DNA from: Hydrolagus colliei
Lineage: Eukaryota
Direction: 5' to 3'
Assembly: GCA_035084275.1 (NCBI GenBank)
Contig: CM068747.1
Span: 23,250,001-23,314,000 of the forward strand
DNA: 64,000 nt
Positions 1,366 to 10,719 of the stretch are shown here, piece by piece. The position numbers and the translations under genes were made by a program. The notes under the pieces are model-generated. The model did no database searches. It saw nothing but the letters and a program-made list of their open reading frames with translations, and was not told where the DNA came from. Within the stretch, counting starts at the first letter, position 1. Each line of letters begins with the position of its first letter.

Positions 1366-3420
1366 AATTATCACCCCCGACCCAAGAACCACCCACTCTC
1401 TTCATCTTTCTCCACCAGTTATAATGTAGGCTGTATTAAGGGAACACTTTAAACATTGTGTTGCCCCTCTCTTAAGTGTTGGGGAATGAAGTTGTATCTG
1501 CATGATGGGGGAAGTGAAGTTTCAGAGCAGTGATTGATAGTATGGAGAGAGAGAGAGAGATTTGCAAGTAGAATACAACCCGAAAAAAGTTGAGGTGGCC
1601 TTATTATGCAATATGCAATAAGATGGAAGGTTTCCATGCCCTGGAGTGAGTGTTCAGAATTTGGTACGTCTGATCTTATTTATTCTGGGTAATTCTTTCT
1701 CTCCCTTTAGTTCCCTCTCATAAACCAGGAAAAGTGTCTTTCCTGCTTGGAGGAGTGCATAGGATCGCTTTGTCCCTAATTGTGTGTTCTCAGTAAAAGA
1801 GCTTATTGCTTAGAACATTCAAGGTGTAAAGTCTTATTCTCTGCTTAATGGCATGAAGAGCATGTATCATATGAGGGATTTCTAAAAATTGCTGCTGAGT
1901 AAATAGTTTGATTTATTGTGTTCTGGGGCATTTTAAGTTAAGTTACTTTTAGCTAGCGTTTGCAGGAGGCAGGAGGAAATCCGTCTCCCCTCTCTCTCTG
2001 TCAGTTAGATAAATAGTTCGGCTTGTTGAGATGAGGGATGCAGTAGAGTGGTAGTTTGTTGCATTACCAATAGGAGGCTGTACTCTGTGTGGTATAACTG
2101 GATTTAAAATGTGTGCCCATGTAAATCTGCCAAATGAGTTTTTGAGTTGTCTAGAGATCTTAGCCATGGTACAATCCATCTGTAGACAGTTGTGTGCTTT
2201 CAGCAATGCAATAGAGCTTGCATATAATAAATGGCATTCATGTTTCCGGTTCACATCTTTCATTATTTTAACAGTATATTGATATTTTTGGTTTCCAATT
2301 TGTTAAATTGCATTTGGAAGAGATTATTGTTTTCAACTAGAATATGACATTTGGTTGAATGCTTCAACAGTTAAAGCTGGGTTCATTTTTTTAATGTTAT
2401 GATTCGAAAACAAAATCATCTTAACTTGACATTTGATATAAAGCAACATCTCAATCAGTTGTGGGCTGCTGGTTCATCATTTCTGTCAATTTGCGTTTTG
2501 AATGATCAACAATATAGTAGTCTGAATGCACACATTGTTTTAGCACGTTATTTGCCCTGTTTATGTGTACCAATGATCAAACTTATTGGTTTAGCTAAAA
2601 CGTTCAAATTTGTCTAGAATGGCAAGGTTCACAATAATATATTTTTAAGTTTTTTAAGCTTGAAACATTGTTAACTTTGAAAACTCCTTGCACTTACAGT
2701 ACAGTATACTTGTACTTGGTAGTATTTCATGTTCAACTTGTTTTCTTGGTACATTTGTATTGAAAAATACACGTTTCTCACAGATGGAATAAAGTTTGTT
2801 AGAAATGACTTTCCAGCCTCTTTGATAATTTATAATATGCAATAGAAGTCATGCAATAACATGATTTAGTATGACAATCATTGAGCTAGATTTCTGTTAT
2901 ATTTCCCTATGCGGAATGAGGATACCGTCCTATCTTGATCAAACTGCAAAGTATAGGGCTCCATTTTTCTAGTTATAATATGGAATGGGGCAACACAGAT
3001 ATTAAATATTCTCAATGTGTTTATTTGTGAGTAAACTAACTAGCCTTCACAATGCGCTTTATCTCTACAAATGCCAGTGAATGCACAGTCAAATAATTAA
3101 TTTTCCAATTGAGTAATGCTATATTTTGTGAATTGAATCTACTTTTTGGTATAATGTCATCTCCATGTCAAAGGTAATTTCAGGTACAGCATCATTTCCC
3201 ATCCTGTTTTGCTGGGCAATACGTTTGCTCATGGTTCTTCTTGGAAGAAAATATCTCAGTGATTCATTTTTATTGTTTAAAAAATATATAGTTTAACATA
3301 AAAAGCTTTAATATGCTACTAATGATTGCCACCATTTTCACTTTCCAGCAATAAGAAGCATTACTCAGAATCAATATGCGTTTGCTTCCTAAAATGCTAA
3401 CCATATTATTTTCTATACAG

Positions 3421-6348
3421 AATTTTCTAGCTCTCTTACCATCTCTGCTGAAGAGGAGAGGGAAGATTTCTACAGCAGTGACCTTCACTTGATTGAAAAA
3501 ACATTTGAACTCAAGCCTGAATCTCAAGTTAAATCTAGCACCTTGAAGTTAAAAACTGATGCTACCACATCAAAAGCAGTCCCCGTATTCATTAAACAAA
3601 TTTCCAACATTGAGGTATTTGTAGAGGATGTAGCCAAGTTCTCTGTCACTATTACTGGAATTCCAAAACCCTCTGTTCAGTGGTTTTACAACAGTGTAAA
3701 GTTGGCTCCTTCACCAAATTACAAATTTGTGTACGATAAGAATGAGTATAGTTTAATCATTTCTTATACAAAACTTACAGATGAGGGAGAATATACCTGT
3801 TCAGCGAGTAATGTACATGGGGAGACTTCTTGCAGTGCCTATCTGAGGGTGAAATCAAAGGAAGGCACAGGAGGGATGAGAAAATCAGCTGCCAAACCTT
3901 TAGTAGTCCAAAAACAATACTCTAAATCGTATAAAGAATCCATAAGTGGTGATCAAGCTATAGAGTCCCGTTTATTCATGGTAAAATTGCCAGGTGACGC
4001 AGGGGCTGGATTACAGAAAGGCAATCAGTTGGTATATACAATAGCAACAGAAGATAAGCATTCGCTACACAGCGAACAAACAGGAGTGTTGCGTGACGTG
4101 ACTCTCTCAGCTGCAGAATCATCAGTAGCAAAGACTCAGATGATAATGCATTCGCAGACTACACAAGAAAGTCATGGATTTATAGAGCAACACTATGAAC
4201 CAATTCAAAGTCCAACTGTGGTTACGTTGCCGAGCACAGCAGTAGAGCAGCAGCCTCTTCTCACTCTGCCCACAGTTGAAGAATTGTTGGTAGAGAATAT
4301 ACAGTCAGTAGATATAGCAATAGGAGCAAGATCATCGAGAGAGTTACTACTACCATTGCTATTACCTGTTATTGGAAGCCAGAAAATATTACCAAAAGAA
4401 TCAATATTAAAATCATATAAATCTGAAATGCTACAGGCTTCGTGTACAAAGGATAACATTATGAAATCTGCGATGGTAACAGAGGAAAAACAGCAGCTTT
4501 CAGCTGAATACGCAGAAGCAATAGTTGGCTTAGACAGAGCAACGGCAGTCAGGTCTGTGAAAGAGCAAAAGCAGCCTTTGCACCTGCAAGTAATTCACAA
4601 ACAAGACACTCTGCCCAGAGAATCGACTTTTACATTTGAAGTACCCGCAGAGGAGAAAGCTAAATTGAGGAAAAGCCCAACATTGCTGCATTCACTATTG
4701 TCCGATGAACAGCAATCCATACCTGATGAATTCACCACTGAGTTACCCAGTGTAATGGATGCCGTCACCTGTAAATCTACAAAAGAACCTGCTTCTATAG
4801 TATTTCCTGTTGACGTAGAAACTGGACACATTCTGCAAAAGGAAGACGTGATTCCCCTTGAAAAACCCGCTCCTCATACAGCAGCCTATAAACTGGAGAA
4901 AGTGTACACTTGTGCAGCAGTTGCAGAGAAACAACAAGAAATGCTAGCGGAGCAAACTGAAGCTCTTGGAAAGGAAGCTGAGAGTTTATATGCCAAGGTC
5001 AAAACCGAGCCTGGTCCCCAAACCTGCCTCCAGTCAGTGACTCTACCAATGTTGCTGTCAAAGGAGAAGGGTTTTACCGTAGAAGCAAAAGAGCAGCGTG
5101 CAGTATTAAATAAAGTAGATGACATAGTCAAGCAGTTCAGTACCACAGTGGAGAGTAAGGTCCTGCGAGATGATTTTGCCGGCACTTTTACGACCACAAC
5201 TGCAACAACCTGCAAGGATAACTATGAACCCAAATTGCTTTCAGTTTCTATACAGGTTGAGGAAAAGGCTCTTTCGATGGAGAGCACAAGCAGCTTAGAG
5301 GCGGCAGAGCAAGACTCTGCGGTTAGAATCCAGGAGGGCCAGTCAGTAAGAATTCCTTTGTTGCTTCACGAGAAGCAGCTTTTTAAAGAGGAACATTCTT
5401 CGGCTATCGAGAAGTCAGGTGAAACCTCCTTAAAGGTAGTGAAACAGTCACAGCAAAAACTGGAAGCTCATGTTGTAGAAGAGAGTGATATATTTCCAAA
5501 AGAACTCCCATTTGTGGTCCAAACTCCCGACACAGTCACTCTGGATATAAACATACAGATAAAGAAAGCACTGCAAGCTGCATTAGCAAGTGAACAGTGT
5601 GTTCTTTCTTCAGAATTGCTGGGCAGTATAGATGAGGTGGAGGTTAGGGAGATAAAAATTCAGAAAGAACCTCGGTGCACTTTGTATACCTATCAGATTA
5701 CTAACACCTGTCCTCCTATAGAAGTGACTCTAGCCTTTGAAGGGGAATATCCCCAGAAAGCTGATCTGAGAGAGGAATTGAGAGCGGCGTTGCATGCCAT
5801 TATTCATCAAGAACAACCCATCCTAATGAAAGAGAAGGCATTGCTGGCCTGTCTGAGTAAAGAGGCTCAGGCAGTGACAGAACCAGATGCCCTTACGTAC
5901 ACTTCAATTGTATCAGATAAGTCTGTGTTAAGTGAGTCAACTTTCACTGTGTCTCAGAAAACAGAATTGCTGATAACCACTGAAGCAGAAGGTTTTGTTA
6001 CGGTACAACAGCCAACAGCGACCCTCAAAAAAGAGAAAGTCCTAGACAAAGCTAGCAAGAGAGTAGCCCAAACTCCACCAGTCATCACTAAAGGGCTATT
6101 GGATATGGAAATAGATGAAGATAGCGAAGTAATATTTAGCACAGTGATAACAAAAGTTCAAAAGGTAAATTGGTACATCAATGCCAGGCAAATTACTTCC
6201 AAAAAAGAGTTCAAATGTTTGCAAGAAGGTGACACTTACTCTCTTATAATCGACAAAGTATGCAAAGAGGAACATCAAGGAGAATATGTCTGTGAGGCAC
6301 TGAATGAAGCTGGAAAAGCAACTACTTCTGCAAAACTTATTATAAGAG
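3421..6348 (+). CDS. TTN: Titin N2B exon (human exon 49 equivalent): I24-like Ig, long N2B unique sequence, I26-like Ig
   Basis: Branch TGCTAAC then ttctatacAG|; starts (E)FSSSLTISAEEE; contains PVFIKQISN..GIPKPSVQWF, QDSAVRIQEG, ALQAALASEQ, EHQGEYVCEALNEAG; donor G|gttgga; 2928 bp, phase 1-1. Confidence 0.96.
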
Positions 6349-6504
6349 GTTGGATTATGGGGATAACATTCTTCTTTAATGTTAATTATGAAACCAAATG
6401 TAATCAGACTAATCACATAGTTAACCTGTAATGCTTAATGGTAGATTCTTGTTCTAATAGATCAACATAACTAAACTCTATCTATTTCCCTCTTTCTGTT
6501 GCTC

Positions 6505-6625
6505 TTTTATTTTGCCCACAAAATATACAGTCAATTCACTTTCAGTATATTCTGTGAAGTTCTTTGAGATGTCTCGAAGACTTGATAAGGCGCTGTACCA
6601 ACTGCAAGGATTACTATTTATTACT
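6505..6625 (+). mobile_element. tRNA-SINE 3' half
   Basis: TTTGCCCACAAAATATACAGTCAATTCACTTTCAGTATATTCTGTGAAG...GCAAGGATTACTATT matches the full copies at 48853 and 50602. Confidence 0.8.
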
Positions 6626-7059
6626 ATTTCACTTTTTACTTATTTGCTCTAATTTAATCAAACATAAATTAAAAGTTTTTTAAAAAAAACAGTTCTGCTT
6701 TAAAATTTCATTTCTAGTAATCTGTACAAAATACAATCAACCCAAATAGGGTCACATCAGTTAATATCACAATCATTTTTATCAAAAGGCTTAAAAGTTC
6801 AATTTTTGCCTCATTTTATTTAATACGGTAGAGGATTAAAAATATAATAATTACTTCTGATCGATATCAAGTCTTGATTATCTGATGTGATCGTAGCATG
6901 CTTTTCATGTGGATCATTTTAAACATTCGATTTTGAATAATAAAAGAAAAAATAATTGCAAATAATCAACGGATAAAAGCTTTGAATTCTATGCTGTTTT
7001 AAAATTTACCATGTTATTCTCTGTGGTTTACTTGCAGTCTAACAATTTCTACTAACCTG

Positions 7060-7480
7060 ATTCAGCCACATGTTTGAAGTTTCAACTAATATAATTTGTA
7101 ATAATTTCACCTCCCCATATTCCACATTTGAGGAATTGATCACTTTCTGGATAGATCATGATCACCACTTTGTCATCACATAAAGGCAACTGATTGATGT
7201 ATTTCTTCCTAAACCTTTATCACCTTTTATCATTCATTTTTTTCTAGGAAGTATAGATGCATCAAGATGCCTTGCATGTTTCTAGAATCTAGAGGCATCA
7301 CACCCACATGTCAATCATTCTTGAATTCCATTGAAATGTCACCGTTTGTTACATTGGACATGATCACTGGTTTGCTAACATCTTTTCACGTTCATTTCTT
7401 CTCCACAGTCACTCCTTGGATTGTTAGTTTCTGTCACCCTTCACCATTGGTCTTTTTAGGTGGTCACACCTACACCTAAT
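7060..7480 (+). promoter_or_regulatory. Putative intronic splicing-regulatory CAC/YCAY cluster
   Basis: About 21 CAC triplets in ~420 nt (hand count) between the N2B and I27 exons; TGCATG at 7273. Confidence 0.5.
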
Positions 7481-7550
7481 CCTTGTGATTGTTACAAAAC
7501 AAAAGTTTGCTGATACAGTGCTCTCATAATCTTTGTATTTGCACCTGCAG

Positions 7551-7829
7551 TGCCTCCATCCTTCAAGAGGAAGATCGAATCAGTGCAAGTGACACTGGGA
7601 CAGATTGCTGAGTTTCACTGTGAGGTTGAACCGGTCTCCGATGTGAGATTCCAGTGGTTTCGAGCAACATCTGAACTTCGCGATAGTGAAAAATACTCCA
7701 TTGTTACCGAGAGGTATATCTCCACCTTGAAGCTTTTGAAGCCCCAACTGATCGACTGTGGTGAATATACCTGCACAGCATCAAACCAAAGTGGCAGTGT
7801 AAGCAGTAGTGCTAAATTGCTTGTGACTG
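7551..7829 (+). CDS. TTN: Titin Ig exon, I27 (exon 50 equivalent)
   Basis: cag|..|gtaagt, 279 bp; VPPSFKRKIESVQVTLG..VRFQWF..DCGEYTC. Confidence 0.96.
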
Positions 7830-8630
7830 GTAAGTGCATTCTCCCAAACCCTAATTGTCATATTTCATTTATTGTTGTAGCGGGCTTCTTCGGTGAATGG
7901 CTTTAGAAAAAAAAACTTCTCTTATTTCTTTTACTCAATGTGTGCATCTAGAATGACTCTTCCATTCCTAAAAATAACAGGCGCTTTGGCGTGTTTTACT
8001 GTTAATATAGTACTGCATAAATAAGGAAAATGTTTCTTTGCAAAGGTATTTTGTGATTCACTGAGCTGACTCACCACCTTTAAGGCTTTGCTCATTTTTC
8101 ATAATTATTATGACAAGTAAAACCGGCACGTTTCACTGATAAAATAACGTCTATCCAAAGAATTATTGCCTTTGCAGCAAATGAATAGGTGGCCAAGGCT
8201 ATTTTACGATCACTATGTAACAGACTATTTTGATGTAATTTACATCAACCTCTTTGAACTTTGATTTTAAACAATACAAAGGTTCATAATCTTCTGCATG
8301 TTTCTAAATCACCTTTGTATGGCTAGTGCAAAGTGCCAGAATGCACAGTGAATAGTAGCAATGCTATTCCAGAACTTTGACGATCAAGTGAATTTTCTCA
8401 CCAAACAATCGGTTCTTAAAATTAAGTTGCTTTCAATTATTTCAAGTTGGGACTGCCTGAATGGTGGCTATGGATGTATTGTGCACCCTCTTTTCTTCAA
8501 ATTCTTTGGGTCTCTCTCTTTGTCTTTATCTTTTAAGTAAATCGGGGTGACATAGCAGTCCTAGTAGTCTGCTTTCTTAGACATTAAGTGATATAAATTG
8601 GAAGTCTAACCCAAGATGTTTATTTTGTAG

Positions 8631-9194
8631 AACTCTTACCGCCAAGCTTTGTAACTAGACCAGATCCAGTTACAACATTTGTGGGTAAACTTGCAAAATT
8701 TCAGTGTGTTGTAACTGGATCCCCTGTGATCCACACCGTTTGGCAGAAGAACGGAGTTGACATCATTCAGGAAGAAAATTGCAAGATTTCATCCAAAGAA
8801 AACAAACGCATTCTGGAAATTAGTCATTTGAAGTTGGAAGACAAGGGCGATTACTCTTGTAAGGTGACCAATCACTGTGGCACTGATATCTGCAGTGCTC
8901 ATCTGACAGTAGTTGACATGCCACATTTCATTAGGAGTCTCAAAGCCATCAAGACAACAGTTAACAGCAATGTGCGTCTTGAATGCCAAGTGGACGAAGA
9001 CACAGGAGTCAAGGTTGCTTGGAAGAGAGATGAAGAAACCCTTCGACCAGGCAAAGATTATAGAATGACTTTTGAAGACAAAGTAGCAGTTTTGGAAATC
9101 CTGAAAAGCAAGCTAAAAGATACAGGAAATTATATGTGCACAGCTTCAAATGAAGCTGGAAGTACCTTCTGCTCAGCATTAGTCACAGTAAAAG
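8631..9194 (+). CDS. TTN: Titin two-Ig exon, I28-I29 (exon 51 equivalent)
   Basis: tag|..|gtaaga, 564 bp; ELLPPSFVTRPDPVTTFVGK..LECQVDEDTG. Confidence 0.96.
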
Positions 9195-10719
9195 GTAAGA
9201 TTTCCTGTACTGATTAGTGGAAAAATTGTAAGCAAAACCTGGTAGTTACTGCAGATGGGCTGTTAAAGATGTTGGTAATAATAACATATTTTAATATAGA
9301 TCAGTCAGCCAGTGACTCAGGTTAGTGAAAATGGAAAATAAATTATCATACGATTAACATAGTTTCTTAATCTTAAAGTTTACATTCTTTTCAATGTAAA
9401 CAATTAAATTCAAAGATGTTGATTGGACGCTGTGAAACAGGAAAAAGGACAATTCTTCTGGAAATCTTTAAATGTGTTGCTTTTCATACTCTTACTCATT
9501 TAGAGTCTTTAAATCATCCCTTTTTACCCCCCAAATGAATGCAATTTCCATTTATATAGAATTTGGGGATTTTCCTCACTCAGCTCCCGATAATTCCCCA
9601 AGCTAAAGCCCAAACTCACAATTTTATGGTGCATGCAATGTATTATACGCTGTTTTACCTGATTCACAGGCAGCAAATAATCTTACTATTACTGTACTAT
9701 GTTTCTTTAAAGCTCTTGTAATCCTTAAAATATCATATTTTTGCTATATTTTAACAACCCATGGAGAGAAGCAAGGTCGTGAAGCCTAAGATTTCAATGC
9801 CAATTGAATCAATGGAGTTTATACTGAAGACTTGGAAACCAAGCACTTGGGTTCACACTGGCACGATTTATCCAGTTTGAATCAGATTCCCTGGGGAATC
9901 AATGGGGCTTTATAATTACAGTATTAACGGCTGAATTCTTTAACAGCCATATCTTTTACACATCTTTACATAAGGATCGTTCTCTTCTCATTGTTTCACC
10001 ATATCTTATGTGTATTATTATTATATTGTGTGTATTGTTTTTTTTAGAAAAGTATATTCCTTTTGCAGTAACAAAAAACTAGCAAATTGGTTGTGGACAA
10101 GGGATTTTCCCCACTTGGCTCCTGATAATCCTGCAACCCAAAGTCCAAATGAATAGAGTGCTGTTATCTGGATAAGCAGTGGGAAGCTTGCTAGGCAAAC
10201 TGCAACAACAGCTTGCACTTATATAGCGTCCTCCATGCAGGGTAGCATCTTAGAGTGCTCAGAAGCTATGTGGTTTTCACTGGTTGAACCCCAGCATATA
10301 CTACAATGCACATTCAGGGATCCTCAAGCCTTGACCCTTGAGAACCCGCACCTGACACTTCACTCCCGAGTAACTCAGGTGTGTCCCTTCAGGAAAAGAA
10401 TGCACATCCCATTCCACATACAAAGAAGCATCCATGTATACACGTGGAACTTTAAGTGTGCTTTGGATGCTCTTAAGCATGGTGATGAGTGACCAGAAAA
10501 AAATATTTACTGTACATAACTTTCATTATACTGTTGAATTTGTGATGCATGAGATTAATTGTGCTTCTTTACAATTCAATAAATGTAAATCAATGCAATA
10601 GCTAATTATGTTGAACACTGTGAAATCTGATCAGTTTGGTTAAGCAGCCATTTGTCTTTTCAAAACAGTAATAACGCAAACAGGATCAGTTTGAGTAGGG
10701 ATTTCCCCTAAAGCATACA

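Follow-up and report, generated by a model that had tools for sequence, protein, structure and literature searches.

An ancient 74-residue tandem repeat in the N2B unique sequence of titin

Cardiac titin (connectin) has three springs, one of which, the N2B unique sequence (N2Bus), has been named and modelled as a unique, non-modular chain. The mammalian form (N2Bus3, 572 residues in human) appears in the literature as a heart-specific spring and signalling hub. One description calls it 'nonmodular' (PMC2150553), and another regards it as disordered apart from one domain (PMC11530556). That domain, a 115-residue segment of human N2Bus, was predicted, purified and unfolded at about 5 piconewtons by Sun et al. 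in 2024 (PMC11530556). Here, we analyze a 64-kb window of the Hydrolagus colliei genome (contig CM068747.1, positions 23,250,001 to 23,314,000), which holds a partial titin gene. An open reading frame (ORF) at positions 3393-6431 of the window encodes two I-set immunoglobulin (Ig) domains, recognized by Pfam, that flank about 740 residues of unique sequence. A large Ig-flanked exon followed by middle-Ig exons, N2A and PEVK is the layout of the titin N2B element, and this is the layout found. The best relative of the ORF comes from skate and is annotated as titin-like (44% over 79% of the query), and homologues from turtle, parrot, beaver and arowana are annotated in the same way. An initial annotation, made from the DNA alone, had recognized the region as titin N2B, and the exon layout, Ig flanks and homologues confirm that assignment. 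The same annotation regarded mammalian N2Bus as a non-repetitive disordered spring, which the 2024 domain has overtaken in part, although the accessible text of that study describes no repeat.

A 74-residue repeat within the unique sequence

We compared the unique sequence with itself, numbering residues from the codon at nucleotide 3420. BLOSUM62 autocorrelation over residues 146-884 gave its top lag at 74 with a z score of 6.1, compared to a largest z of 4.8 at lags 10-250 in 2000 shuffles, and further peaks were seen at lags 218, 148, 147 and 37. At lag 74, the highest-scoring ungapped off-diagonal reached 128, whereas none of 200 shuffles exceeded 55. The period is also present in the DNA (lag 222 nucleotides, z 7.1; lag 111, z 3.9; 300 codon shuffles) and is strongest in a profile built from 17 non-mammalian homologues, where lag 74 reached z 12.9 and was accompanied by harmonics at 147/148, 110, 184 and 294. 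The initial annotation had proposed this periodicity from 21 short motifs. All of them occur in the ORF, each 23 residues beyond its hand-counted position (LPKES at residue 324, nucleotide 4389; FPKEL at residue 692, nucleotide 5493), and the spacings of 74, 74, 74, 72 and 74 residues that separate these two were correct. The self-comparison with shuffled controls thus upheld the 74-residue off-diagonal as significant.

The array consists of six clear units (residues 302-743, nucleotides 4323-5648), a divergent seventh (residues 744-812) and a lone upstream half-unit (Table 1), which makes about 7.5 full copies rather than the eight first suggested. Pairwise identity between the units of the window is 9-25%, and Tandem Repeats Finder detected no repeat in the exon because the units are so divergent. 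We therefore asked whether each unit is recognized by hidden Markov models (HMMs) built without it, counting a protein as positive when it scored above the 99th percentile of its shuffles. Units 1 to 6 were each recognized in most of the non-mammalian proteins (Table 1), and a control segment from the tail passed in 2/17. Off-diagonal self-similarity and units that match one another without mutual training are what is expected of a protein tandem repeat, and both were found here. That the N2B repeat is real and old we regard as virtually certain. Before unit 1, the proteins of skate, bony fish and turtle-like rows carry one to three extra degenerate half-units, and the window has about 85-117 fewer residues than these proteins at this place (4200-4320).

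Each unit has two halves. The A half closes on a hydrophobic-x-K-E motif (LxKE) whose glutamate is found in 94% of 99 units, the B half carries a related E-E-x-x-x-L-x-x-E motif, and the two anchors alternate at 36 and 38 residues. The earlier proposal that the halves are themselves related is borne out on a weaker signal. The unit profile peaks at half-lags 36 (z 3.1) and 37 (z 3.3; null 95th percentile 3.1), hhalign matches the A half to the B half with E 0.0008 and a probability of 24%, and only 16/99 B halves and 4/99 A halves passed the 99th shuffle percentile when scored with the HMM of the opposite half. The kinship of the two halves is real but weak. Hydropathy, beta propensity and charge share a 9.2-residue period (power 20, 24 and 12; null 95th percentile about 8-9), corresponding to eight hydrophobic, beta-prone segments per unit. 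This rhythm is a harmonic of 74, and it therefore describes the unit without adding independent evidence for it. A sub-period of 18.5 residues was not significant (z 1.5-1.6).

The unit is confined to N2B in the sequences that we searched. Units 1-3 recovered this exon alone from the animal's own genome, and the unit HMM found no further copy in the six frames of the window, nor outside N2B in five long titin-like proteins, nor in the upstream unique region of the parrot protein. The kea protein (P0073) does have a recent short tandem repeat upstream of N2B, at residues about 1230-1400, but its period of about 15-16 residues and its Y-S-T-P-rich composition are unrelated to the 74-residue unit. 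One candidate homologue, P0029 (E 1e-5), was dropped as an unrelated repeat protein that the unit HMM does not match. The unit may resemble the invertebrate Sallimus/I-connectin repeats, but homologue searches gave no invertebrate match, and nothing on such a link was found in PMC12198301. Pfam has no family for the repeat and returned weak Ig-like rows only; solved-structure sequences gave 0 matches to the unit alignment at E up to 10, a further search of these sequences returned Ig matches only, and the ESM Atlas gave no usable match, though empty look-ups of this kind do not show a fold or family to be new.

Table 1. Features of the titin N2B exon in the window. Row counts are proteins that pass leave-one-unit-out HMMs; aa, amino acids; PSSM, position-specific scoring matrix.
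Feature	Position	Strand	Basis
Titin N2B exon (single large exon: Ig, unique sequence, Ig)	3421..6348	+	ORF 3393-6431; acceptor AG ends 3420; donor GT from 6349; RNA splice
First Ig (I-set) domain of the exon	3582..3851	+	Pfam PF07679
Upstream B-type half-unit remnant, residues about 198-229, contains EDKHSLHSE	4011..4106	+	PSSM 14 bits vs shuffled 99th percentile 9.7; unit HMM 11.9 bits, outside its training set
Unit 1, 74 aa, residues 302-375	4323..4544	+	13/15 non-mammal rows
Unit 2, 74 aa, residues 376-449	4545..4766	+	14/16 non-mammal rows
Unit 3, 74 aa, residues 450-523	4767..4988	+	17/17 non-mammal, 17/21 mammal rows
Unit 4, 72 aa, residues 524-595	4989..5204	+	15/17 non-mammal, 10/22 mammal rows; spacing
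Unit 5, 74 aa, residues 596-669	5205..5426	+	16/17 non-mammal, 16/22 mammal rows
Unit 6, 74 aa, residues 670-743; B half is the first helix of the predicted folded domain	5427..5648	+	13/17 non-mammal, 22/22 mammal rows
Divergent unit 7, residues 744-812; three strands and last helix of the predicted folded domain	5649..5855	+	HMM of units 1-4 only: 7.1 bits, 0/500 shuffles as high; 17/22 mammal rows pass
Predicted folded domain, residues about 710-812, half-units B6-A7-B7	5547..5855	+	AlphaFold; by-eye match to printed human domain; in-register alignment to units 1-4
Last Ig (I-set) domain of the exon, start approximate	6072..6348	+	Second I-set stretch; Ig motif at residue 954

Conserved length, age and the predicted folded end of the array

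We next considered how the register has been kept among homologues. Skate, arowana, whitefish, icefish, box turtle, kea and beaver are named in our alignment, and the other rows are called amphibian-like, bird-like or mammal-like by similarity. Among the 21 non-mammalian rows, the first three intervals between successive A anchors are exactly 74 residues in 16/17, 18/18 and 16/20 of the proteins with both anchors present, unit 4 has a spacing of 72 or 73 in 18/19, and unit 5 returns to 74 in 15/19. The register is retained in skate, bony fish, turtle and parrot. Good preservation was thus found in every non-mammalian group sampled, with erosion in mammals, and the suggestion that the repeat is better preserved in this lineage does not hold.

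A constraint on repeat length, which had also been proposed, is supported by the distribution of insertions and deletions. In 78 pairs drawn from 13 non-mammalian rows, residues 302-709 are 32.5% identical and show 0.44 indel events per 100 aligned residues, which is the level of the Ig domains (0.75 and 0.48). The upstream and downstream flanks of unique sequence show 3.2 and 7.2 events, such that indels are 7-16 times more frequent than in the array at similar identity; this ratio is descriptive, because the pairs share ancestry, come from a single MAFFT alignment and include some near-duplicate rows. Between the window and a close relative, 14 changes in the array replace a residue and 8 are silent (pN/pS about 0.5), with zero indels. 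The residues of the array drift while its length stays fixed.

The duplications that produced the units are old. When 52 units from 9 rows are placed in a tree, the labels for the six positions require 5 changes, which is the minimum (the mean for shuffled labels is 34). Units 4, 5 and 6 are each recovered as a group with full support, in a tree that rests on only 75 columns and whose bootstrap had not settled. Because units group by position, the duplications predate the split between cartilaginous and bony fishes, and the sequences give no sign of later homogenization. Recent concerted duplication is ruled out by the same clustering. Together, these results describe a long, apparently disordered region that for over 400 million years has kept its length as a folded domain would, a finding that needs explaining under any mechanism.

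Mammals have departed from this pattern. Across 31 mammal-like rows, units 1-2 have no aligned anchors and the spacings of units 3 and 4 are scattered (30-75 and 57-68), whereas the last intervals are fixed at 75 in 28/31 and 54 in 30/31. The human sequence printed in PMC11530556 has A anchors, by hand count, at 131, 205, 273 and 348, which are 74, 68 and 75 apart. An HMM trained on non-mammalian units 1-4 only still recognized mammalian unit 5 in 16/22 proteins, unit 6 in 22/22 and the folded domain in 20/22, with 0/22 for the tail control. The last 2.5 units remain in register in mammals. A mammal-only profile (22/30 rows; the other 8 did not fit the pattern used to cut the units) has 37 and 74 as its top two lags, with z 3.7 and 3.2 against a blind 95th percentile of 3.6; the repeat stands at the edge of detection in these sequences, which is likely why it was overlooked. 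Some mammal-like rows have large deletions inside the array (P0025, P0062, P0069 and P0070), with about 180 residues missing from P0025, and two rows with a spacing of exactly 37 have lost one half-unit.

We used AlphaFold with 53 rows to model residues 287-813. Only residues about 710-812 fold, as a helix, a short helix, three strands and a helix, with block confidence (predicted local distance difference test, pLDDT) mostly 73-92 and one block at 64. The same topology is predicted when this domain is modelled alone (mean pLDDT 67). The rest of the model has block pLDDT of 37-57, except for a low-confidence helix in the B half of unit 3 (model residues 199-229, pLDDT about 52-66). The upstream units are thus predicted to be disordered, although structure prediction cannot exclude folds that are marginal or induced by a partner, and the idea of a repeat fold shared by every unit was not supported. 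The modelled domain corresponds to that of Sun et al. (PMC11530556), with which it agrees in topology (helix, three strands, helix) and, clearly, in sequence. Their domain was treated as a stand-alone element in a disordered chain. Here, it comprises the last three half-units of the repeat, and its profile aligns by hhalign with units 1-4 in register at three offsets (E 0.003-0.018). The force-sensitive domain thus originated from the repeat. Neither model found a match at E 0.001 in Foldseek and VIA-align searches, where the best Z scores were 4.5 and 4.8. The order of elements is that of a double-stranded RNA-binding domain (dsRBD), and several dsRBD entries are among the weak Foldseek rows (E 0.1-0.3). 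The best VIA match, at Z 4.8, is to an unrelated protein.

What the conserved register may be for

The simplest account of a chain that is disordered alone and yet fixed in length is that a partner of fixed geometry reads it as a template. We favor the reading that the upstream units form a fixed-register strip of short beta motifs that fold on binding, most likely to FHL LIM proteins, and give it a probability of roughly 40%. The disordered units would contribute short strands upon contact with a multi-domain partner, at sites that follow the repeat register. Four LIM domains could read the four motifs of one 37-residue half along a fully extended chain, or alternatively could take every second motif across one 74-residue unit, and stretch would open the strip for binding. 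Mammals would have retained the domain and the last units and relaxed the remainder into a softer entropic spring.

Several observations are consistent with this reading. Human N2Bus binds FHL2 at many short sites in a mapped region, 79-308, which contains 13-14 predicted LIM sites of 3-5 residues joined by links of 5-15 residues, and eight more sites are buried in the domain (PMC11530556). By hand count on the printed sequence, this region covers units 3-5. LIM ligands characterized so far consist of disordered beta motifs 8-10 residues long (PMC4195752), and units 1-5 fit the profile of a beta-zipper ligand, disordered alone with hydrophobic beta motifs, in their low predicted confidence and 9.2-residue rhythm. 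These units remain unfolded in AlphaFold though the same alignment folds the terminal domain. An extended strand of 9.25 residues spans about 3 nm, which is the LIM spacing given by Sun et al. (PMC11530556). The genome also encodes what we take to be FHL2-, FHL1-, FHL3- and FHL5-like genes, judging from likeness to a printed FHL2 sequence. A metagenome scan for an intron-free FHL2 returned genomic exons only. We also modelled units 3-4 together with three copies of a piece encoded by one FHL2 exon, which falls short of a full LIM domain; run without alignments, this complex scored 0.01, a value that counts neither for nor against binding.

Other considerations weigh against FHL as the reader of the register. 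Binding in register is something we infer, and the 3 nm match is arithmetic, not measurement. Spacers in tandem LIM complexes are plastic, at 1-9 residues (PMC4195752, PMC5496915), so LIM binding need not forbid indels. Variable FHL2 binding configurations have been reported (Sun et al., PMC11530556), and human N2Bus still binds FHL2 despite the lost register of its upstream units. A 9.2-residue period is expected of any 74-residue repeat with uneven hydropathy. Moreover, a generic LIM motif does not explain the strict alternation of A and B halves or the near-invariant LxKE glutamate.

An alternative is that all units are alpha/beta modules of marginal stability that resemble the last domain, or that units pack on each other or on neighboring titins, which would make non-mammalian N2B a string of low-force unfolding elements. 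The domain itself consists of three half-units that align in register with units 1-4, indel rates at the level of Ig domains usually mean a fold, and the A half retains alternating hydrophobic positions together with its glutamate. AlphaFold nevertheless yields no fold for units 1-5, whose hydrophobic fraction (0.38) resembles that of the disordered flanks (0.36) and not that of the folded domain (0.48), and 99 stacked units show no coherent covariation, which is a weak test. Human N2Bus without its domain gives no unfolding step (PMC11530556), though the human units are eroded. We consider a string of modules unlikely, but it is the strongest competitor to an FHL-binding strip.

The strip could also serve another periodic or multi-domain partner, such as a small heat-shock protein oligomer, a kinase scaffold or an unknown I-band protein. 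The evidence for length constraint names no partner, and alphaB-crystallin, Hsp90, PP5 and Erk2 have been reported on N2Bus3 (PMC8553726). None of these has a known rigid period that matches 36/38 residues, and only FHL has been mapped to the repeat stretch; a different reader seems improbable to us.

The initial annotation raised a ruler along the thin filament. Nebulin, which is built of 35-residue modules with an SDxxYK motif, is not known from heart muscle, and one half-unit of 36-38 residues per actin subunit could play a nebulin-like part there. The half-unit is near the nebulin module in length, a filament template would impose strict spacing, and in the elephant shark splicing includes N2B in heart and removes it in skeletal muscle (PMC12241362). 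Published mammalian data argue against the idea. N2Bus3 showed no direct actin binding (Yamasaki 2001, as cited in PMC8553726), and thin filaments stayed intact after overexpression of a middle N2B piece (PMC2150553); we have marked the ruler down for these two results, which were obtained with mammalian, eroded sequence. In addition, the array is net acidic (-15), Pfam gives no nebulin match at E up to 10, and the nebulin motif is missing from the column table of the unit. We judge a thin-filament ruler to be quite improbable.

The least probable reading is that old duplications lengthened an entropic spring and left a register with no present role: units that are so divergent, mammals that drop units 1-2 and tolerate out-of-phase indels, the loss of about 180 residues in P0025 and a pN/pS that indicates weak selection on 22 changes are all compatible with a relic, but flanks in the same exon accumulate indels far more often at similar identity, and the 74-residue spacings persist across non-mammals.

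Returning to a docking strip, its broadest form is that the N2B spring began as about eight 74-residue modules that load FHL or another rigid partner at fixed intervals upon stretch, as a graded tension gauge. This gauge would be intact in fish, amphibians, turtles and birds and reduced in mammals to about three units and a force-gated folded end, with human FHL2 sites, phosphosites and cardiomyopathy variants mapping onto the register. We offer this as a doubtful but possible history.

The exon, its surroundings and described repeats

The N2B exon begins in phase 1, and translation from 3421 itself is out of frame (77 stops). Stranded RNA reads from a close relative span the exon at a depth of about 5-13, and 9 of its reads join 6348 to 7551 at GT..AG; in this one sample, the exon is transcribed and spliced in. 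Two other samples gave 0 reads (X4) and five reads (X3). No RNA record was listed as containing the window sequence itself at this place. An assembly artefact is ruled out by an independent contig that matches 2500-6536 with 9 differences and no gap.

Two Ig motifs (residues 123 and 954) are found in the exon, whereas skate and most other rows have three. The middle Ig is absent at 3852-3920, where about 95-120 residues are missing in frame. The independent contig spans this place gap-free, and reads of the close relative show no joint and no indel there, though their depth dips. One other row, P0010 (amphibian-like by similarity), also lacks the middle Ig.

Upstream, positions 1-306 hold a minus-strand open frame, in the intron before the N2B exon, whose motifs resemble those of a reverse transcriptase from a long interspersed nuclear element, of which it would be a fragment. 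The intron right after the exon contains a short high-copy repeat (6507-6580) on which thousands of contigs and RNA reads from elsewhere stack. Further downstream are single-Ig exons and then PEVK-like exons. Unlike the later single-Ig exons, 8597-9217 is a single, intronless open frame with two Ig domains. Middle-Ig exons return in sets of about six at 12279-36238, similar to the 6-Ig super-repeats described for cartilaginous fish connectin (PMC12241362).

The repeat has probably not been reported before. Searches of the open literature listed no article on a repetitive N2Bus. No N2Bus repeat is mentioned in the accessible text of PMC11530556, PMC8553726, PMC2150553, PMC12241362, PMC11033294, PMC8189172, PMC12198301, PMC13031707, PMC3402919 or PMC12418385; this applies to open-access literature, and subscription papers on fish, turtle and human N2B may contain an earlier mention. 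The repeat explains the origin of the folded domain described in 2024, and its conserved register amounts to a coordinate system that predicts the positions and number of docked partners. It also offers a way to interpret missense variants and phosphosites where structure is absent, and suggests that N2B differs in length between species through the gain and loss of modules.

Compared with mammalian N2Bus3, the window copy has the same exon position and Ig flanks and is 28-45% identical, by region, to beaver and other mammal-like rows, but it is longer, retains units 1-2 and lacks the middle Ig. The tandem beta-zipper LIM-interaction domains (LDB1-LID, ISL1-LID, DEAF1 and ARP7A) resemble the array in having a disordered chain with short hydrophobic beta motifs, which are predicted here; those ligands have two motifs and a plastic spacer, in contrast to about 50 segments in a fixed register. 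Tandem modules are also found in sarcomeric giants as the PEVK PPAK modules (26-28 residues), Z-repeats, Ig/Fn3 super-repeats and nebulin 35-residue modules, and Z-repeats and nebulin modules bind their partners as linear motifs. The N2B repeat differs from all of these in length and composition, in lying within one exon and not an exon per module, and in having no Pfam match. The repeat adds a new feature to a known protein and does not define a system of a new kind.

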